The notes under the pieces: model-generated
Database searches by the model: none
The model's input: the letters and a program-made list of their open reading frames with translations, nothing else
What the model was told of the DNA's origin: nothing
Source: Dehalococcoidia bacterium
GTDB taxonomy: Bacteria; Chloroflexota; Dehalococcoidia; Bin125
Assembly: GCA_965200625.1 (NCBI GenBank)
Contig: OZ241375.1
Span: forward strand, 1,896,087 to 1,960,086
DNA: 64,000 nt
Reading direction: 5' to 3'
Part shown: positions 1 to 37,770 of the stretch, piece after piece
How positions within the stretch are numbered: position 1 is the stretch's first letter
Layout: each line of letters opens with the position of its first letter
Made by a program: the position numbers and the translations under genes

Positions 1-539
<539 letters not shown>

Positions 540-566
540 CTAGCTGGCGGGCGATACCCTACCCGC

Positions 567-1118
567 ATGAGCGACTCCGCCGACGCTTCCGCGCTGCCGC
601 CCGCGCCGACGGCGCAGCTGATCGAGCGCAAAGTCAGGCTGGACGGGCGGGTGCTGGAGTTTCCGCTCGAGCGCTGGCTCTGCACGCCGGAGCTGGTCGT
701 CGGGCGCTGGGTCGCGGACCAGGATCCACGCGCGATCAGCCGCTATCCTAACGCCGCCGGCTTCACCAGCTGGGGCGTCTGGTGGCCGCAGCGCCCCTAC
801 AGCGCCTACCGCCTGCACAACCCCGACGGGGCGCTGCGCGGCTACCGCCTCGACACGGTGGACCGCGTCCTCTGCGACGGCCAGACCGTCGAGTTTCACG
901 ACCTGCTCCTCGACGCCCTGATCCGCCCCGACGGCTCGGTCAAGATCGAGGATGAGGGCGAGGTCGAGCGGGCGCTCGCCGAGAACCAGCTCAGCCTCGA
1001 TCAGCGCTGGCGCATCGACTGGACGCGCAGCCTCTACGCGGCTCGGGCGGAGCTGCTCATCCAGCGCATCGACGCCGCCGTCCAGCAGGCCGTCGAGGCC
1101 GTCCGCAGCGGCGCTTGA
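567..1118 (+). CDS. DUF402 (FomD/Ntdp-like nucleotide hydrolase family) protein
   Basis: 183 aa. C-terminal HDLLLDALIRPDGSVKIEDEGEVERALAENQLS matches the DUF402 DLxLDxxVxPDGxxxxxDEDEL..A signature. Its stop TGA (1116-1118) lies 1 nt before the Dam start, suggesting translational coupling. Confidence 0.55.
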   Translation: MSDSADASALPPAPTAQLIERKVRLDGRVLEFPLERWLCTPELVVGRWVADQDPRAISRYPNAAGFTSWGVWWPQRPYSAYRLHNPDGALRGYRLDTVDRVLCDGQTVEFHDLLLDALIRPDGSVKIEDEGEVERALAENQLSLDQRWRIDWTRSLYAARAELLIQRIDAAVQQAVEAVRSGA

Positions 1119-1119
1119 G

Positions 1120-1950
1120 ATGGCCCGCCCGTTCCTCAAGTGGGCCGGCGGCAAGACCGCGCTCCTGCCCCAACTGCTCGCCGCCGCGCCGGCGGAGATT
1201 GAGATGTACTACGAGCCGTTCCTCGGCGGCGGCGCGCTCTTCTTCGCGCTCCAGACCGAGAGCCGCTTCCAACGCGCCGTCCTCTCCGACAGTAACAAGG
1301 AGCTGATCAACGCCTACGAACAAGTCCGCGACAACGTTGATGGCTTGATTCGGGCGTTGTCCGTGCACCAGCGCAAGTATCTCGCCGCTCCTGACCGGGC
1401 TGAGTACTACTACACGATCCGCGCCAAGCGGCTGACCTGCAGTCTGGGCGGCGCGGCCAACCTGATCTTCCTCAACAAGACCTGCTACAACGGCCTCTAC
1501 CGAGTGAACAGCAAGGGTAAGTTCAACGTCCCGCATGGGCGCTACCAGAATCCGACGATCTGCGACGAAGCCAATCTACGCGCCGCGTCGCAGGCGCTCC
1601 AGGGCGTCGAGCTCAGGGTCGGGGATTTCGCCGCCGCCCCCAGCCGCGCCGGGCGGGGTGACTTTGTTTACTGCGATCCTCCTTACGCGCCGCTCAGCGA
1701 GACGGCCAACTTTACCAGCTATACAGCGGCGGGCTTTGGCTTGGAGGAGCAGCAGCGTCTGGCGCGGATGGCGTCGGAGTGGGCGTCGGGCGGAGCGGCG
1801 GTCGCGCTGTCCAACTCGGCTCATCCTGAGGTTGCAACGTTGTATTCGGAGACGGACTTTCGCCGCCTCGAAGTCCGCGCTCCGCGCGCGATCAACGCTA
1901 ACGCCGAGGGTCGCGGCCTCGTTCGAGAGTATCTGATCCGGTCAGCCTGA
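1120..1950 (+). CDS. Dam-like N6-adenine DNA methyltransferase (D12 class, alpha group)
   Basis: MARPFLKWAGGK (AdoMet-binding motif) at the N-terminus and DPPY catalytic motif (FVYCDPPYAP). Order of motifs is typical of Dam/DpnIIA/EcoRV-type alpha MTases. ORF-track entry 952..1950 has a spurious N-terminal extension in a frame overlapping the DUF402 gene. Confidence 0.85.
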   Translation: MARPFLKWAGGKTALLPQLLAAAPAEIEMYYEPFLGGGALFFALQTESRFQRAVLSDSNKELINAYEQVRDNVDGLIRALSVHQRKYLAAPDRAEYYYTIRAKRLTCSLGGAANLIFLNKTCYNGLYRVNSKGKFNVPHGRYQNPTICDEANLRAASQALQGVELRVGDFAAAPSRAGRGDFVYCDPPYAPLSETANFTSYTAAGFGLEEQQRLARMASEWASGGAAVALSNSAHPEVATLYSETDFRRLEVRAPRAINANAEGRGLVREYLIRSA

Positions 1951-2379
1951 AGCGTCGCCGTTGAGGATCATTTCGGCTTGCCGGGCGCGCTCTCGGGGGA
2001 GGCGGAAGTAGAAGCGGAGCCATTCGGCGAGGCGCTTGAACTCGACGATGCGGCCGCGTCCCTTGAGGAAGGGGATGAAGTCCCGAGAGAAGCCCTCGCC
2101 GTGCAGGACGACGATGCCGCGGATGGGCCAGTCCTCCATGTCTTCGACGGTGAGCGGGATTTTCTCCTCGACGGTGCCGCGGTTGCGCTGGTACTTGCAC
2201 TCGATCCCGAGCATCCGCTCGGAGCCGGGCTTGCTGACCACGACGTCCACGTGCCGTCTGGTGCCCCAGATGCGGTCGCCCATGACGACCTGGCGCTCGA
2301 CCTCCAGCCCAAGCGCCTCGCCGACCATGGCGACGGCGCGTTCCAGATCCGCGCCCGACCGAATGTCGATTGGCTCCAT
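1942..2379 (-). CDS. Small PD-(D/E)xK-fold nuclease (candidate restriction endonuclease or MTase-associated nuclease)
   Basis: 145 aa with HVDVVVSK...(13 aa)...LGIECKYQ, a D-x(n)-E-x-K nuclease core. 3' end overlaps the Dam 3' end by 9 bp (convergent); also lies 36 bp downstream of the MaoC gene on the same strand. Confidence 0.55.
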   Translation of the reverse strand: MEPIDIRSGADLERAVAMVGEALGLEVERQVVMGDRIWGTRRHVDVVVSKPGSERMLGIECKYQRNRGTVEEKIPLTVEDMEDWPIRGIVVLHGEGFSRDFIPFLKGRGRIVEFKRLAEWLRFYFRLPRERARQAEMILNGDASG

Positions 2380-2415
2380 GGCTTCAGCCTACACTTCAGA
2401 CCGGTTCCGACCCGC

Positions 2416-2886
2416 TCAGGCTGACTCGGGGCGTTTGGGGATCATGACGGCGCGGTGGAAGGAGAGGACCTGGACTCCGTCCTGGTTGGCGGCGGTGGTG
2501 TGGACGGTGACGATGCCGCGGTCGGGCTGGCTGCGGCTTTCCCGGACCTCCAGGACTTCGGTTTGCGCTTGCAATGTGTCGCCGTGGAAGACGGGGGCGG
2601 TGTGGCGGAGATCGGTGGTGGCCAGGTTGGCGATTGCTTTGCCGGACACGGTCGGCACCGTCATGCCGAAGACCAGGGAGTAGACGAACGGCCCGGAGAC
2701 GATGCGCTGGCCGAACTGCGTATCTTCCGCGTACTGCTTGTTGGTATGCAGCGGATGATGATTCATCGTCAACATGCAGAACAGCAGGTCGTCGGCTTCC
2801 GTGACCGTCCGCGTGGGCCAGTGTTCAATGATCTCGCCCACGGCGAACTCGTCCAGGTAGCGTCCGAACAGTTCTTTGGTTGGCAT
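2416..2886 (-). CDS. MaoC-like (R)-specific enoyl-CoA hydratase/dehydratase (single hot-dog fold)
   Basis: 156 aa; hot-dog dehydratase pattern (HHPLHTN...GQRIVSGPF...). Confidence 0.8.
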   Translation of the reverse strand: MPTKELFGRYLDEFAVGEIIEHWPTRTVTEADDLLFCMLTMNHHPLHTNKQYAEDTQFGQRIVSGPFVYSLVFGMTVPTVSGKAIANLATTDLRHTAPVFHGDTLQAQTEVLEVRESRSQPDRGIVTVHTTAANQDGVQVLSFHRAVMIPKRPESA

Positions 2887-2932
2887 GGGAGTCCTCCGCT
2901 TTCGGTTGCTCTGCTGGGCGCGGGAATCTGTA

Positions 2933-4120
2933 CTATTCGACCGCGTACAGTTCCAGCAGGCGCCGGGCGATGACGATGCGCTGGATTTCGTTTGTGCCCT
3001 CGGCCACCGCCATCAGCGGGGCGTCGCGGTAGAAGCGTTCGACGGGCAGCTCTTTCGTGTAGCCGACGCCGCCGTGCACGCGCATTGACTCGAGGCTGCA
3101 CTCCAACGCGACTTCAGTGGCGAAGAGCTTGGCCATGCCGACGTCCAGGTCGGAGCGCTGGCCGCTGTCCTTCTTGCGGGCGGCGTCGCGGGTGAGGAGG
3201 CGGGCGGCGCGGATTTTGGTGGCCATCTCGGCGAGCTTCAGCTGGATCGCCTGATGCTGGGCGATCGGCCGGCCCATCGTCTCGCGGCGCTGGGCGTAGA
3301 TGATCGCCTCGTCGAACGCGGCCTGGGCGACGCCCGTCGCGCGCGAGGCGACGTTGATTCGCCCGATCTCGAGGCCTGAGATCATCTGCTGAAAGCCGCG
3401 TCCCTCGCGTCCGCCGAGCAGGTTCTCGGCCGGCACCCGCGCGTCTTCGAGGAAGAGTTCGGCGGTCTCCGGGCCTTTGTAGCCGAGCTTGTCGATTGTC
3501 CGCGCGATCGAGAAGCCGGGGGTGTCCTTCTCGACGAGGAAGGCGGAGATGCCGCGGTGGCGGGGTTGGGCGGAGGGGTCCGTCTTGGTCATGGCGAGGT
3601 AGACGTCGCCGCGGTCGCCGTTGGTGACGAAGAGCTTGTTGCCGTTGAGGAGGTAGTCGTCGCCGTCGCGGGCGGCGGTGGTGCGGATGGCCTGGGCGTC
3701 GGAGCCGGCGTTGGGTTCGGTGATCGTGAAGCAGCCCTGTTTCTCCCCGCTGGCGAGGCCGGGCAGGAAGCGGTCTTTCTGGTCGGCGGTGCCGTGCTCG
3801 TCGATGATCCAGCCGTCGATCACGTTGGTGTTGATGATGCCCGCCAGCCCCATCCAGCCGCGCGAGATCTCCTCAATCACGGCGGAGTAGGTCTCGAAGG
3901 AGAGGCCCAGTCCGCCGTGCGACTCGGGGAAGGTGATGCCGAAGATGCCCATCTCGCACATGTCGGCGTGGATCTTCGCCGGGAACTGGCCGGCGTGCTC
4001 CAGCTCGACCGCGTTGGGGATGACCTGCTCATCGACCCAGCGCCGCACATTGCGGGTGATTTCGACCCCAGTCTCCCCATCGCCCGCAATGATCTCGCGC
4101 ACATCGCTCACGCTGGCCAT
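2933..4120 (-). CDS. Acyl-CoA dehydrogenase
   Basis: 395 aa; ACAD N-terminal, middle and C-terminal regions recognisable (GLAGIINTNVIDGW..., FATEVALECSLESMRVHGGVGY). Confidence 0.9.
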   Translation of the reverse strand: MASVSDVREIIAGDGETGVEITRNVRRWVDEQVIPNAVELEHAGQFPAKIHADMCEMGIFGITFPESHGGLGLSFETYSAVIEEISRGWMGLAGIINTNVIDGWIIDEHGTADQKDRFLPGLASGEKQGCFTITEPNAGSDAQAIRTTAARDGDDYLLNGNKLFVTNGDRGDVYLAMTKTDPSAQPRHRGISAFLVEKDTPGFSIARTIDKLGYKGPETAELFLEDARVPAENLLGGREGRGFQQMISGLEIGRINVASRATGVAQAAFDEAIIYAQRRETMGRPIAQHQAIQLKLAEMATKIRAARLLTRDAARKKDSGQRSDLDVGMAKLFATEVALECSLESMRVHGGVGYTKELPVERFYRDAPLMAVAEGTNEIQRIVIARRLLELYAVE

Positions 4121-4159
4121 GGCCGCCTCCTCGCTTGGCTCGTTGCCGGTCAGTCTACG

Positions 4160-4600
4160 GGCGGCTCTGGGGATCCGTCATTGCCGCGCTCCGCTGCGGC
4201 AATCTCGACGCTTGGTTGACCGCTTCCGGCTCCGCATGGGTTCCCGCTTTCGCGGGAACGACGGTGGGGGAGGGGCTGATGGGGTGCTCGCCTGCTTTGG
4301 GATGCCCCCCTCAGTCACTGCGTGACAGGTCTCCCAGAGGGGGATAGCGCTGAAGCCCTTTCCGTCGTTCCTGCGAAAGCAGGAACCCATACGGAAGAGC
4401 GCTTCCGCCCCGATCTCTCGGTCACGTCGTCAGGGCGGCGCTCTCGAGGCTTTGGGGATGGTTTCGGCCATTGTTTGGGTTCCCGCTTTCGCGGGAACGA
4501 CGGTGGGGGAGGGGCTGATGGGGTGCTCGTCTGCTTTGGGACGCCCCCCCTCAGTCGCTGCGCGACAGCTCCCCCCGTGGGGGGAGCTCTACCCTTTGGG
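4160..4600. repeat. Composite MITE-like palindromic repeat region: one full copy 4238-4388 bounded by inverted hairpin TIRs GTTCCCGCTTTCGCGGGAACGACGG / CCGTCGTTCCTGCGAAAGCAGGAAC, plus a truncated second copy 4478-4600
   Basis: Directly visible near-identical units; same motifs recur at 30.6, 37.6, 44.9, 46.0-46.5 and 48.0-48.2 kb. Confidence 0.8.
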
Positions 4601-4616: not shown

Positions 4617-5792
4617 ATGACTGATACGTTGACGGGTCAGCGGGTGGTTTGGGGGGAGCGGGTGGAGTCGATTGGGGAGGCGTTGCGGGCGGCGTCGCCG
4701 CGGAATGAGGCGTTGCGGCAGCTGTCGGGAGAGACGGAGGCGGCGCTGCGCTCGATTGATGTGTTTGGGCTGTGCTCGCCGGCGGAGTTGGGCGGGGAGG
4801 ACGCGCATCCGATCGCGCAGACGCAGGCGATTGCGGCGATTACCGCGCACGACACGTCGGCGGGCTGGTGCGCGTTGATTGGGGCGCATGAATCGGCGTG
4901 GCTGGCGAGCCGGCTGCCGGACGAGGCGGTCGGGCGCGTGTTTGCGGACGCGGCGCAGCGCTGGCCGGTGACGGCCGGCTCGATTGCGCCGGAGGGCGAG
5001 GCGGAGGTGGTGGAGGGCGGCTTGCGCGTCAAGGGGCGTTGGGGCTGGGCGTCGGGGATTCACCACTCGGACTATGTGTTGGCGACCTGCCGCATTGTCG
5101 GCGTTGAGCGGGAGCCGGGGCAGCCGCCGCCGATGGCGACGGTGGCCGCGCCCAAGGCCGAGGTGGCGGTAGAAGACACGTGGCACACGCTGGGGATGCG
5201 GGGGACGGGGAGCACGCACTATCGGTTGGAGGATGTGTTCATTCCGGCGGAGATGCAGTTGGCCGGCTTCGAGCGGCCGCCGCTGCGCGGCGGGGCCTGG
5301 CTGCAGCGGCCGGTACCGACCTTCCTGACCGCGGCCGGCTACGGCTTCCCGCTGGGCGTGGCGCGGCGGGCGCTGGAGGAGATTGTTGGGCTGGCCGCGA
5401 ATCGGGTGCGCACGGGGCAGCGGGAGTCGGTGGCGATGCAGCAGCACGCGCAGTACGAGATCGGCGAGTGCGCGGCGCTGCTGGATGTGATGGAGGGCTA
5501 CGGCGAGCAGCTGTTCCGCGATCTGCTGGCGGCGCCGGTCACGTCGTTGGCGGACGCGGTGCGGATGGATGATCGGGCGCGGGCGGCGCTGCGCTGGGCG
5601 CATCGGACGGCGGAGCAGATCGTGCGCAGCGCGCACGCGCACGCGGGCGGCGCGGCGATCTACGACGACAATCCGCTGCCGCGTTTGCTGCGCGATATCC
5701 AGACGGCGAGTCAGCATGTGATCCAGGTCGAGTCCGCCTATATTCGGCGCGGGCAGCAGGCGCTCGGCCTTGAGGTGCGGCCCGGTCTCTAG
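4617..5792 (+). CDS. Acyl-CoA dehydrogenase-fold flavin-dependent monooxygenase/oxidoreductase (DszC/SfnB/HpaB-C2-like)
   Basis: ATG at 4617 preceded by GGAGGAGG RBS. The ORF-track start 4452 would read through the repeat element. ACAD-like C-terminal helical domain present. Confidence 0.7.
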   Translation: MTDTLTGQRVVWGERVESIGEALRAASPRNEALRQLSGETEAALRSIDVFGLCSPAELGGEDAHPIAQTQAIAAITAHDTSAGWCALIGAHESAWLASRLPDEAVGRVFADAAQRWPVTAGSIAPEGEAEVVEGGLRVKGRWGWASGIHHSDYVLATCRIVGVEREPGQPPPMATVAAPKAEVAVEDTWHTLGMRGTGSTHYRLEDVFIPAEMQLAGFERPPLRGGAWLQRPVPTFLTAAGYGFPLGVARRALEEIVGLAANRVRTGQRESVAMQQHAQYEIGECAALLDVMEGYGEQLFRDLLAAPVTSLADAVRMDDRARAALRWAHRTAEQIVRSAHAHAGGAAIYDDNPLPRLLRDIQTASQHVIQVESAYIRRGQQALGLEVRPGL

Positions 5793-5831
5793 CGGTCTCT
5801 AGCGCCCGCGCCGATGGGAGGGGAGTACGTC

Positions 5832-7025
5832 ATGAGCCGGACCAGCACTGCGCGGCAGCGCGAGCGCGCGGACTGGATTGGGCGCGCGGAGTCTGTGCGG
5901 GGCGTGCTCAGCGAGCACGCGGGCGCGTCGACGGAGGCGCGGACGCTCGCGCCCGCCTCGGTGGCGGCGCTTGAGGACGCGGGCTTCTTCCGCATGGCCT
6001 CGCCCCAAGAGGTCGGCGGGCACGACGTGCATCCCGCGACGCAGGTGGAGGCGTTTGAGCAGCTGGCCGTCGCTGATGTCTCCAGCGGCTGGGTGGCGAT
6101 GATCCAGGCGGAGACGCCGGGTCTGGCGGGCTCGCATCTGCGCGACGGCGCGGGGCTGGACGCGGTCTTTGGCGGCGGCTTTCCGCGCATTGCGGGGACG
6201 GCCAATCCGGAGGGTCGGGCGACGGCGCTGCACGACGGCCGCTTCCGCTTCGATGGGCGCTGGTCGTTTGCGAGCGGGATTCGGCATTGCGGTTGGGTGC
6301 TGGCGAATGCGGTGGTGGTCAAGGCGGACGGCTCGCGTCCGACGCGTGAGGACGGTCTGCCGCCGGTGATTGGCGCGGTGATTGCGCAGTCGCGGCTGGT
6401 CGTGGAGGACAGCTGGCAGGTGATGGGGCTGGAGGGCACGGGGAGCTGCCACTATCAGGCGCACGGTGTGGTTGTGGAGCCGGAGTTCACGACTCCGTTT
6501 GGCGGCGTCCATAGCGAGCGCGGCGGGCCCTGGTTTGAGCTGCCGACGATTACCTTTCTCAGCCCGGGCCATACGGGAATTGCGCTGGGCTCCGCGCGGC
6601 GGGCGCTCGATCTGCTTGGCGGCGAGCTGACCAGCCGCGTCCGTTTTGGCGCGAGCGGCGCGATTGCCGATCGCGGGGCGTTCCAGCGTGATTACGGGGA
6701 GATGTGCTGCCGCTATGAGGCAGCTCGCGCCTATGCGTTGAGCACGCTGGATGAGGCGATGGCGCTGCGCGAGTCGGGTGAGGCGATTACTCCGGCCCGC
6801 GACGCTCGGATCCGGGCGATGGTCACCTGGGTGACTGATGTGTGCGTCGAGGTCGTGCGCTTTGCCCATCACGTCGGCGGGGGCGCGGCGGCGTTTACAG
6901 ATAGTCCGTTGCAGCAGCTGTTGCGCGACATCCTGGTCGCCAGCCAGCACATCTATGTTGCCGATAGCGCTTACGAACGCAGCGGCGCGTTTCGGCTGGG
7001 GCGCGCCCCGTCCAGTGCGCTCTAG
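5832..7025 (+). CDS. Acyl-CoA dehydrogenase-fold flavin-dependent monooxygenase, tandem paralog
   Basis: Paralogous to 4617-5792 with shared blocks (VEDxWHxxGMRGTGS, AAIYxDNPLxRLLRDI). ATG at 5832 with GGGAGGGGAG RBS. Confidence 0.7.
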   Translation: MSRTSTARQRERADWIGRAESVRGVLSEHAGASTEARTLAPASVAALEDAGFFRMASPQEVGGHDVHPATQVEAFEQLAVADVSSGWVAMIQAETPGLAGSHLRDGAGLDAVFGGGFPRIAGTANPEGRATALHDGRFRFDGRWSFASGIRHCGWVLANAVVVKADGSRPTREDGLPPVIGAVIAQSRLVVEDSWQVMGLEGTGSCHYQAHGVVVEPEFTTPFGGVHSERGGPWFELPTITFLSPGHTGIALGSARRALDLLGGELTSRVRFGASGAIADRGAFQRDYGEMCCRYEAARAYALSTLDEAMALRESGEAITPARDARIRAMVTWVTDVCVEVVRFAHHVGGGAAAFTDSPLQQLLRDILVASQHIYVADSAYERSGAFRLGRAPSSAL

Positions 7026-7048
7026 GCGCGCTCGCGCGTCTTGAGCGG

Positions 7049-7939
7049 CTAACGCGCAGCTTCCATGGCGGCGATCTGCTCTGACCAGGCGAGGACGTTC
7101 TCGGCCTGTTCGAGGACGGGCTTGTCAATCATCTGGCCGTCCAGCGCGACTGCGCCCAGATTCTGTTCGACGCCGTCCTGATAGGCCTCGACGACGCGGC
7201 GGGCCCAGTTGACGTCGTCTGGCGGCGGGCTGAAGACGCGGTTGGCGGGGGCGAGTTGATCGGGGTGGATGCAGAACTTGCCCTGGAAGCCGATCTCTTT
7301 CATTCGCCGGAGCTCGTCCTCGTAGCCCTCGGGGTCGCGGATGTCCGTCCAAGGGGTGTCCAGCGGGGCGATGCCGGCGGCGTGGGCGGCGTTGACGGAG
7401 GCGCGGCGGGCCAGCTCCAACTCTGCGCCGCCCTTGGTGCGGCGGACGCCGATGCTGACGGCGTAATCCTCGCCGCCGACGCAGATGCCGACCAGCCGCG
7501 CCGAGGCGGCGCAGATCTCGTAGGCGTTTGCGACCGCGTGCGCGTTTTCGATCCAGGCGGCGATCTTCACCTGGCCGTCGGCGAGGCCGCGGGCGCGTTC
7601 GATCAGGGTGAGGTAGTCGTCAATGCGCTGGACGTCGCGGGCGGACTCGATCTTGGAGACGCTGACGCCGTCCAGCCAGGGCTGGACGATGGCGTGGAGT
7701 TCCTGCTCGATCAGGCCGGTGTCGTAGCCGTTGGTGCGGACGAAGAGCTGGCGGCCGCGCTTGGGGAAATCGGGGAGGACTCGGCAGAGCAGGTCGCGGG
7801 CGGTGGGCTTGTCGTCCCAGGCGACGGAGTCTTCGAGGTCGAAGCAGAGCACGTCGGCTTGAGCGTCGCGGGCTTTCTCGATGAAGCGTTCCCGAATGCC
7901 GGGCACGGACAACATTGATCGCATCACGGTGGCGGCCAC
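7049..7939 (-). CDS. HpcH/HpaI aldolase / citrate-lyase beta (CitE)-like acyl-CoA lyase
   Basis: 296 aa; CitE/malyl-CoA lyase family pattern (SMLSVPG..., LCFDLEDSV, KIESARDV). A start at MRSM (7924) is also possible. Confidence 0.75.
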   Translation of the reverse strand: MAATVMRSMLSVPGIRERFIEKARDAQADVLCFDLEDSVAWDDKPTARDLLCRVLPDFPKRGRQLFVRTNGYDTGLIEQELHAIVQPWLDGVSVSKIESARDVQRIDDYLTLIERARGLADGQVKIAAWIENAHAVANAYEICAASARLVGICVGGEDYAVSIGVRRTKGGAELELARRASVNAAHAAGIAPLDTPWTDIRDPEGYEDELRRMKEIGFQGKFCIHPDQLAPANRVFSPPPDDVNWARRVVEAYQDGVEQNLGAVALDGQMIDKPVLEQAENVLAWSEQIAAMEAAR

Positions 7940-30600: not shown

Positions 30601-31030
30601 CAATCCGCCGTTCCCACCCCTCCCTCTTCCGTCATTCCTGCGCCTCCTTCCGTCATTCCTGCGAAAGCAGGAACCCATCCGCTACCGTTACTTCCGCTTC
30701 TCCACCCCCACTCTCTGTGCGTCGTTTCCGCGAAAGCGGGAACCTCGTCGCTGGGACGCGGCGGCGAGCATCGCTGGATTCCTGCTTTCGCAGGAATGAC
30801 GGAGGGGAGCGCAGAAACGGCGAAGGGGAGCGCAGAAACGACGGAGGGGAGCGCAGGAATGACGGAGGGGAGCGCAGGAACGACGGAGGTCAGCGCTCCC
30901 CCTTTGGGGGAGCTGTCGCGCAGCGACTGAGGGGGGCTTCTCCGAAGCAACGGGACAGCGCTGGGTGTAGTCACCCTAGGGGTTCCCGCTTGCGCGGGAA
31001 TGACGGAGAGGGGAGCGGGAACGATGGGTG
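30601..31030. repeat. Composite MITE-like repeat region with several hairpin modules (TCATTCCTGCGAAAGCAGGAAC, GAGCTGTCGCGCAGCGACTGAGGGGGG and others)
   Basis: Same motif family as 4160-4600. Confidence 0.8.
30793..30897. repeat. 21-bp tandem repeat x5 (GGAATGACGGAGGGGAGCGCA and variants)
   Basis: Five head-to-tail 21-bp units with no spacers; the unit is a half-site of the MITE terminal hairpin. Confidence 0.85.
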
Positions 31031-37595: not shown

Positions 37596-37770
37596 ACTAC
37601 TCGCCGTCGTTCCTGCGAAAGCAGGAACCCACGCGGAGGTCGCGCTCGTCTCCCTGAGTTGAGCGATCACGGTTCAGACCAGGTGCGGGGACCGCGGCAT
37701 TTTTGGCACTTGGGCGACGGTTTCGGCCATGGTCTGGGTTCCTGCTTTCGCGGGAACGACGGAGCCTGTG
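37596..37770. repeat. MITE-like repeat elements (two opposed terminal-hairpin modules) between convergent operons
   Basis: CCGTCGTTCCTGCGAAAGCAGGAACCC at 37606-37632 and GGTTCCTGCTTTCGCGGGAACGACGG at 37738-37763. Confidence 0.75.

Follow-up and report, generated by a model that had tools for sequence, protein, structure and literature searches.

A probable GATC-type restriction-modification module with a 145-residue PDDEXK_11 nuclease in Dehalococcoidia

Described GATC systems and layout of the locus

Type II restriction-modification (R-M) systems of the DpnII/MboI type associate a Dam-like GATC methylase with a restriction endonuclease that cleaves GATC when it is unmethylated, the two being encoded by separate, adjacent genes. 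The endonucleases R.DpnII and R.MboI are about 280-290 amino acids (aa) in length, and DpnII possesses a second methylase, which belongs to the beta class (DpnA). In E. coli, a Dam-family methylase is found as an orphan enzyme alongside MutH, a PD-(D/E)xK nickase directed by Dam. PvuII, with 157 aa, is described as the smallest Type II restriction enzyme (PMC1874628). The locus considered here lies within a stretch of 64,000 nucleotides (nt) from a Dehalococcoidia bacterium (contig OZ241375.1 of assembly GCA_965200625.1), which is referred to in its entirety as the window. It comprises a gene for a Dam-family DNA methyltransferase (M gene) and a convergent gene for a stand-alone 145-aa protein with a PD-(D/E)xK nuclease core (R gene). 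Positions 1120-2379 of the window are interpreted, with a probability of about three in four, as a two-gene Type II R-M module of the GATC type in which the 145-aa protein would be the cognate endonuclease.

The window locus shares with the DpnII/MboI type its separate, adjacent M and R genes and a methylase of the Dam-like, probably GATC-specific kind; M.DpnIIA is moreover the closest solved relative of this methylase, in which the GATC-reading residues are retained. The difference resides in the nuclease, since R.DpnII and R.MboI are about twice its size and no similarity to the DpnII family or to the PADLOC restriction-enzyme models could be detected. Functionally, the window system is expected to work like the DpnII/MboI type, albeit with a nuclease that belongs to no characterised restriction-enzyme family. 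The second, beta-class methylase of DpnII can be likened to the PF01555 partner that accompanies some relatives of the window nuclease. As a minimal single-domain PD-(D/E)xK protein, the nuclease also resembles PvuII and is likewise expected to act as a homodimer on a short palindrome; its 145 aa (126-146 aa in the family) compare with 157 aa for PvuII. A Dam-family methylase in which the recognition residues are the same, together with a PD-(D/E)xK nuclease under predicted control by GATC methylation, recalls the Dam and MutH proteins of E. coli, and the vertical retention of the window pair in a Dehalococcoidia clade may be counted as a further likeness. However, the window methylase scores below the equivalog cut-off for enterobacterial Dam and the nuclease does not match MutH. 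In addition, E. coli Dam is an orphan methylase, whereas genes of the window type are joined in a single cassette that recurs patchily across phyla.

The two genes and their overlap are located as follows.

1120-1950, plus strand: M gene, Dam-family D12 (alpha-class) N6-adenine DNA methyltransferase, 276 aa, ATG at 1120
1942-2379, minus strand: R gene, stand-alone PD-(D/E)xK protein (Pfam PDDEXK_11), candidate restriction endonuclease, 145 aa; ATG at 2379 and stop at 1942-1944, as read from the sequence
1942-1950: 3'-3' overlap of the convergent M and R genes, 9 base pairs (bp), as read from the sequence

The presence of separate and adjacent methyltransferase and endonuclease genes is the arrangement expected of a Type II system. 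The N-terminus of the methyltransferase is MARPFLKWAGGK, residue 5 being the first of FLKWAGGK and residue 186 that of DPPY, and the motifs HVDVVVSK and GIECKYQ are both present in the 145-aa nuclease open reading frame (ORF). Upstream of the M gene, a single nucleotide separates the stop codon of a DUF402 gene from the methyltransferase ATG. An earlier interpretation of this DNA, made from its letters without database searches (the sequence-only reading), had given the same coordinates, 1-nt gap, 9-bp overlap, motifs and flanking genes, all of which were confirmed when the sequence was read. Convergent gene ends that are similarly tight or overlapping are displayed by relatives, for example L009, L015 and L085, the L numbers being used throughout for the loci of relatives.

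Methyltransferase, nuclease and their linkage

The methyltransferase is recognized by the MethyltransfD12 model (PF02086) of Pfam with an E-value of 1e-57 and by the Dam model TIGR00571 of NCBIfam with 268.6 bits, against a cut-off of 114.85. Its N-terminal AdoMet-binding motif precedes DPPY, which is the motif order of the alpha class. The NCBIfam equivalog for enterobacterial Dam (NF008152) is not reached, with 176.4 bits for a cut-off of 441. Judging from these scores, the protein is a member of the Dam family and not an orthologue of E. coli Dam. Its nearest solved relative is M.DpnIIA (DpnM, 2dpm; E 2.9e-59), followed by E. coli Dam itself (EcoDam, 2g1p; 3e-38).

The residues used by EcoDam to read GATC permit a prediction of specificity. 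R124 contacts the Gua of the fourth pair and Y119 is responsible for intercalation, N120, L122 and P134 being involved as well, while K9 and Y138 read the first pair (PMC4417163). All seven are retained in the window methyltransferase, where K9, Y119, N120, L122, R124, P134 and Y138 correspond to K7, Y123, N124, L126, R128, P138 and Y142, respectively. An alignment of 71 nuclease-adjacent methyltransferases shows the K, N, L, R and P positions to be universal; the Y119 position is occupied by Tyr in 30 proteins and by Phe in 41, and the Y138 position by Tyr in 69 and by Asn in 2. Because all the GATC-reading residues of EcoDam are kept and the closest solved relative is M.DpnII, GATC is the likely modification site of the window methyltransferase. 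Following the usual logic of R-M systems, GATC would likely be the cleavage site of the nuclease too.

The nuclease is a clear member of PDDEXK_11 (PF20472), with an E-value of 3.9e-21 and 75.7 bits for a cut-off of 23.7; like the domain match of the methyltransferase, this one is well beyond what chance would give. This family, to which no function is assigned, is the sole above-threshold nuclease match in Pfam, where none to the DpnII family was obtained. A total of 64 homologues were found, all of them carrying PF20472 and most of them 126-146 aa long, so that the description of the nuclease as unusually small in the sequence-only reading is upheld. Residues D45, E60, C61, K62, Q64, E71 and E72 are invariant in the homologue alignments. 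A confident AlphaFold2 model computed with 43 sequences (pLDDT 84, pTM 0.82) displays the core typical of the PD-(D/E)xK superfamily (alpha-beta-beta-beta-alpha-beta), in which D45 lies on the second strand and E60-x-K62 on the third. On the strength of this model the fold class can be regarded as certain, and residue conservation together with the model indicates an intact catalytic centre, as required of a Type II restriction enzyme. The Foldseek matches of the model are nucleases and Type II restriction enzymes, 1y88 and 1xmx being the top ones. The alpha-type 'class I' topology goes with enzymes producing 5' overhangs (PMC1874628); the class I topology of 1y88 and 1xmx is thus a weak hint that the position of cleavage may resemble that of DpnII/MboI.

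Membership in a characterised restriction-enzyme family was looked for among DpnII/MboI, MutH/Sau3AI, PADLOC and NCBIfam, and none was found; as regards MutH/Sau3AI, Pfam showed no similarity at E <= 0.1. Searches of the PDB with the single nuclease sequence and with a profile only returned chance matches such as KIN17 and SNAP25 (E > 0.1). Only one homologue bears a source name, which is 'hypothetical protein'; the names retrieved by cluster look-ups were no more informative, and a literature search for PF20472/PDDEXK_11 found no papers.

The genomic context of the family was examined by scanning one genome per species. Among 185,579 species, 284 encode a relative of the nuclease, and the best 80 loci were examined for partner genes using tblastn with the window proteins. 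D45, C61, K62, Q64 and E71 are present in 80/80 loci and E60 in 79/80, Asp being found in the remaining one. A DNA methyltransferase is adjacent to the nuclease or one gene away in 78 of the 80 loci. The partner is Dam-like in 72 of them (tblastn); in 6 others, all from Verrucomicrobiota, it is a beta-class N6_N4 methylase (PF01555), again adjacent or one gene away. The 72 Dam-like pairs comprise 33 convergent arrangements, 30 tandems with the nuclease first and 9 with the methyltransferase first, and the spacing is mostly below 60 nt or the genes overlap. At L087, an intact methyltransferase gene absent from the gene list was located at the nuclease locus. The hosts belong to at least eight phyla (Chloroflexota, Hydrogenedentota, Verrucomicrobiota, Acidobacteriota, Cyanobacteria, Pseudomonadota, Chlorobiota and Nitrospirota), and a nuclease profile search retrieved 528 cluster representatives at E <= 1e-3 among 1.84 billion. 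The near-constant methylase partner, the shuffled gene order, the exchange of methylase class and the patchy phyletic spread constitute the typical footprint of an R-M module. Such linkage is expected of a Type II system, whose endonuclease could not be maintained if the protecting methylase were missing. The sequence-only reading had proposed an R-M-type pairing of the Dam-like methyltransferase with the small PD-(D/E)xK nuclease, and this is borne out by the 78/80 linkage in hosts from many phyla and by the catalytic D...E-x-K signature kept throughout.

The same data bear on another possibility, namely an orphan Dam methylase abutting an unrelated small nuclease, either a protein of the Hjc/YraN or Holliday-junction-resolvase kind or the terminal gene of the ACAD-MaoC operon. 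The sequence-only reading had mentioned the latter as an alternative. Within the Dehalococcoidia clade it agrees with the position of the R gene, but the constant partner elsewhere is the methyltransferase: the synteny of MaoC and ACAD with the nuclease is a property of the Dehalococcoidia loci, and other loci (L046, L055, L069) merely display scattered, distant MaoC or ACAD matches. As to the former, neither a match to an Hjc/YraN-type housekeeping family model nor independence from methyltransferase genes was found. The sequence-only reading would have been contradicted by an Hjc/YraN-like housekeeping protein never accompanied by a methyltransferase, and the linkage observed is the opposite. 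The Hjc/YraN-type bystander was rejected on this co-occurrence, which largely refutes the juxtaposition of two unrelated genes as a whole and leaves it very unlikely.

A number of observations nevertheless weigh against the interpretation of the pair as an R-M module. The nuclease is apparently solitary in two loci, L054 (nuclease at 5977-6375) and L060 (~6001-6360), where D, E and K are intact and the neighbours are an MFS transporter and panB; no methyltransferase was seen there, the ORFs immediately upstream being the only ones checked against Pfam. The NCBIfam and PADLOC restriction-enzyme models gave no match to the nuclease at E <= 0.1, and the designation 'restriction enzyme' derives wholly from gene context and fold. 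No relative of the nuclease was found in plasmid and phage collections (tblastn) or in a scan of IMG/VR, so that phyletic patchiness is the single indication of mobility for the nuclease-methylase module. GATC is not avoided in the window, where 628 sites are observed for 646 expected (observed/expected 0.97, or about one site per 100 bp). This frequency provides no independent sign of restriction pressure; it is compatible with a fully methylated host and is otherwise uninformative. Finally, the stable vertical inheritance described below is not what selfish R-M modules usually show, and it makes a domesticated role conceivable.

Neighbouring genes and retention in Dehalococcoidia

The genes surrounding the pair in the window are the following.

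567-1118, plus strand: DUF402 ORF, 183 aa, PF04167, stop TGA at 1116-1118
ATG at 389, minus strand: purA, divergent, upstream of DUF402
2416-2886, minus strand: MaoC-like hydratase gene (PF01575, E 4e-23), flanking and outside the system
2933-4120, minus strand: ACAD gene, flanking, upstream of the nuclease gene and on the same strand

The end of the MaoC gene is separated from the start of the nuclease gene, on the same strand, by 36 nt in the window; the distance is reduced to 3 nt or to an overlap in L085 and L087. A promoter and terminator scan of positions 300-4400 found nothing, such a scan being uninformative in a Chloroflexota genome of 66-72% GC. Since neither the M gene nor the R gene has much upstream space of its own, expression by read-through from housekeeping operons is probable. 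In the Dehalococcoidia clade, the M gene would be transcribed from DUF402 and the R gene from the MaoC operon, each of them presumably co-transcribed with its upstream neighbour.

The DUF402 gene had been regarded in the sequence-only reading as a third, coupled component of the system. Its product matches PF04167 weakly but above threshold (27 bits for a cut-off of 23.9, Pfam), and 60 homologues carry a precomputed assignment to this family. A three-component system, in which a DUF402 nucleotide hydrolase would act with the R-M pair, draws its appeal from the short distance to the methyltransferase, a single nucleotide in the window and 9-10 nt in L083, L085, L086 and L088. The distribution of the gene speaks against it. 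A profile built from the orthologues detects DUF402 in 14 of the 80 nuclease loci, all of them belonging to the syntenic Dehalococcoidia. In L009 and L015, which belong to the same clade, the methyltransferase-nuclease-MaoC-ACAD order is kept without DUF402, other genes being found upstream of the methyltransferase. The L015 genome carries an intact purA-DUF402 pair about 6 kb away, followed by an ABC transporter, which puts the breakpoint of this rearrangement precisely at the boundary of DUF402 and the methylase. In L084, the gene that follows purA-DUF402 (5737-7362) is an R-M gene of another kind; its 541-aa product fuses an N6_N4 methylase to Mrr_cat/NA-iREase1 domains, and it takes the place of the Dam-nuclease pair. 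DUF402 thus neither extends beyond one lineage nor stays with the pair upon rearrangement. Where stand-alone DUF402 proteins have been characterised, they proved to be nucleoside di/triphosphatases or FomD-type hydrolases (PMC11602121), activities that fit the purA neighbour and purine metabolism. DUF402 is a purA-linked neighbour and not a component of the R-M system; its participation as a third partner is extremely unlikely, and the tight spacing is most simply explained by transcription of the methylase through DUF402 read-through.

The fusion gene of L084 suggests, as a separate observation, that the site downstream of purA-DUF402 is a small hotspot for defence genes.

Throughout the Dehalococcoidia clade, the nuclease-methyltransferase pair occupies a single, constant place in the chromosome and has been passed on by vertical inheritance. 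Divergence within the syntenic clade is considerable, identity decreasing to about 42% for the nuclease and to about 56-61% for DUF402. The nucleases found at the shared site (~6001-6420) fall into two sets, L001-L012 with 80-88% identity to the window protein and L013-L020 with 54-62%; the methylase, MaoC and ACAD on either side show much the same similarity in the two sets. Fast evolution of the nuclease at this site was considered and rejected, as clustering reveals several distinct paralogue lineages. Rather than diverging in a clock-like manner, the nuclease looks, from these comparisons, to have been replaced by a paralogue.

Four syntenic Dehalococcoidia genomes contain a second, tandem PDDEXK_11 copy between the first nuclease and the methylase.

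L003:5905-6330, tandem second copy
L005:1838-2248, tandem second copy
L006:6420-6821, tandem second copy
L011:6565-6996, tandem second copy

The E-x-K motif of the L003, L005 and L006 copies reads V-C-R, A-C-M or S-C-M, both Glu and Lys being lost, and these copies are catalytically dead as judged from their residues. The motif is intact in the L011 copy, which groups with the only nuclease that L019 and L020 each possess. The tandem copies are possibly the partners of an active/inactive heterodimer, or decaying duplicates.

Retention at a constant site raises the possibility of a domesticated, Dam-guided nuclease comparable to MutH, which would nick the unmethylated strand of hemimethylated GATC or use methylation as a strand or self mark during repair or replication. 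The persistence of the pair at the same site in the Dehalococcoidia clade despite deep divergence is consistent with such a function, as are the location of both genes at the 3' ends of housekeeping operons without a regulator of their own, the absence of GATC depletion in the window and the dead tandem paralogues of L003, L005 and L006, which would suit an active/inactive heterodimeric nickase. These paralogue features do not, however, apply directly to the window, which contains a single, catalytically intact copy. The rare and patchy occurrence of the family in at least eight phyla, as quantified above, argues against such a function, and the shuffled gene order with its exchange for a beta-class methylase in Verrucomicrobiota fits a mobile R-M system better than a repair pathway. 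The lack of Pfam similarity to MutH/Sau3AI already mentioned adds to these points. A MutH-like role is therefore considered unlikely. If true, a protein of less than 150 residues would carry out methyl-directed processing of DNA in bacteria other than gamma-proteobacteria.

Additional genes are occasionally associated with the pair. A protein of 270-290 aa without Pfam match is encoded beside the methylase and the nuclease in 7 of the 80 loci, from several phyla: L030:6387-7250 (minus strand), L043:5178-5984, and also L021, L038, L056, L070 and L077. Compared with the L030 copy, those of L043, L056, L070 and L077 are 36-46% identical and those of L021 and L038 are 88-90% identical. A beta-class methylase is present in one of the seven loci. 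The protein appears as a facultative gene of this R-M family and is not present in the window. In an acidobacterial locus (L068:5519-5959), a 146-aa DUF7226/AAA_assoc_C protein is encoded between the methylase and the nuclease. With respect to the solitary nucleases of L054 and L060, protection may come from a methylase encoded at another place in the locus or in the genome.

Several palindromes other than GATC are strongly under-represented in the 64-kb window when compared to the Markov expectation: CTAG (0.39), TTCGAA (0.11), TCGCGA (0.26), GGCGCC (0.27) and GCATGC (0.31). Other R-M systems of the lineage may be the cause. The window also contains a dispersed REP-like element at 4196-4583, 30650-31006 and 37604-37762. 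At 4196-4583, two direct copies are located between divergent acyl-CoA dehydrogenase genes; a copy is made of a 115-nt repeat and an adjoining 39-nt repeat, for a total of about 150 nt, and the copies are 84-85% identical. They are accompanied by the hairpin-forming palindrome GGGTTCCCGCTTTCGCGGGAACGACGG, which occurs three times within 4238-4503 and 8 times in the window when at most 3 mismatches are allowed, none being expected by chance.

Proposed mode of action and significance

The operation of the proposed R-M module can be briefly summarized as follows. GATC sites of the host would most probably be methylated by the methyltransferase at their adenine, on both strands of the chromosome. 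The 145-aa PDDEXK_11 protein would cut unmethylated GATC in incoming DNA, and the N6-methyladenine of the host would block the nuclease at its own sites. The active nuclease is most likely a homodimer, in which D45, E60 and K62 would form a Mg2+-dependent active site. Expression of the M gene would probably rely on read-through from DUF402, and that of the R gene on the end of the convergent ACAD-MaoC operon. What the analysis shows is the gene structure, the domain identities, the conservation of the catalytic and GATC-reading residues, the near-obligate linkage of nuclease and methyltransferase across phyla and the independence of DUF402; the nuclease target, its sensitivity to methylation, its dimerisation, the position of cleavage and co-transcription are inferred from these.

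Apart from its tiny nuclease, the system is an ordinary defence system and opens no new category. Its setting is that of an R-M module held at one chromosomal site across an uncultured Dehalococcoidia clade, each gene lying at the end of a housekeeping operon. Functional information on PF20472 is provided by the R-M context described above. Should specificity for GATC be confirmed, the PDDEXK_11 proteins, with their 126-146 aa, would undercut PvuII in length; they would offer a minimal model for the recognition of a 4-bp site by a bare PD-(D/E)xK core, and PF20472 would acquire a function.

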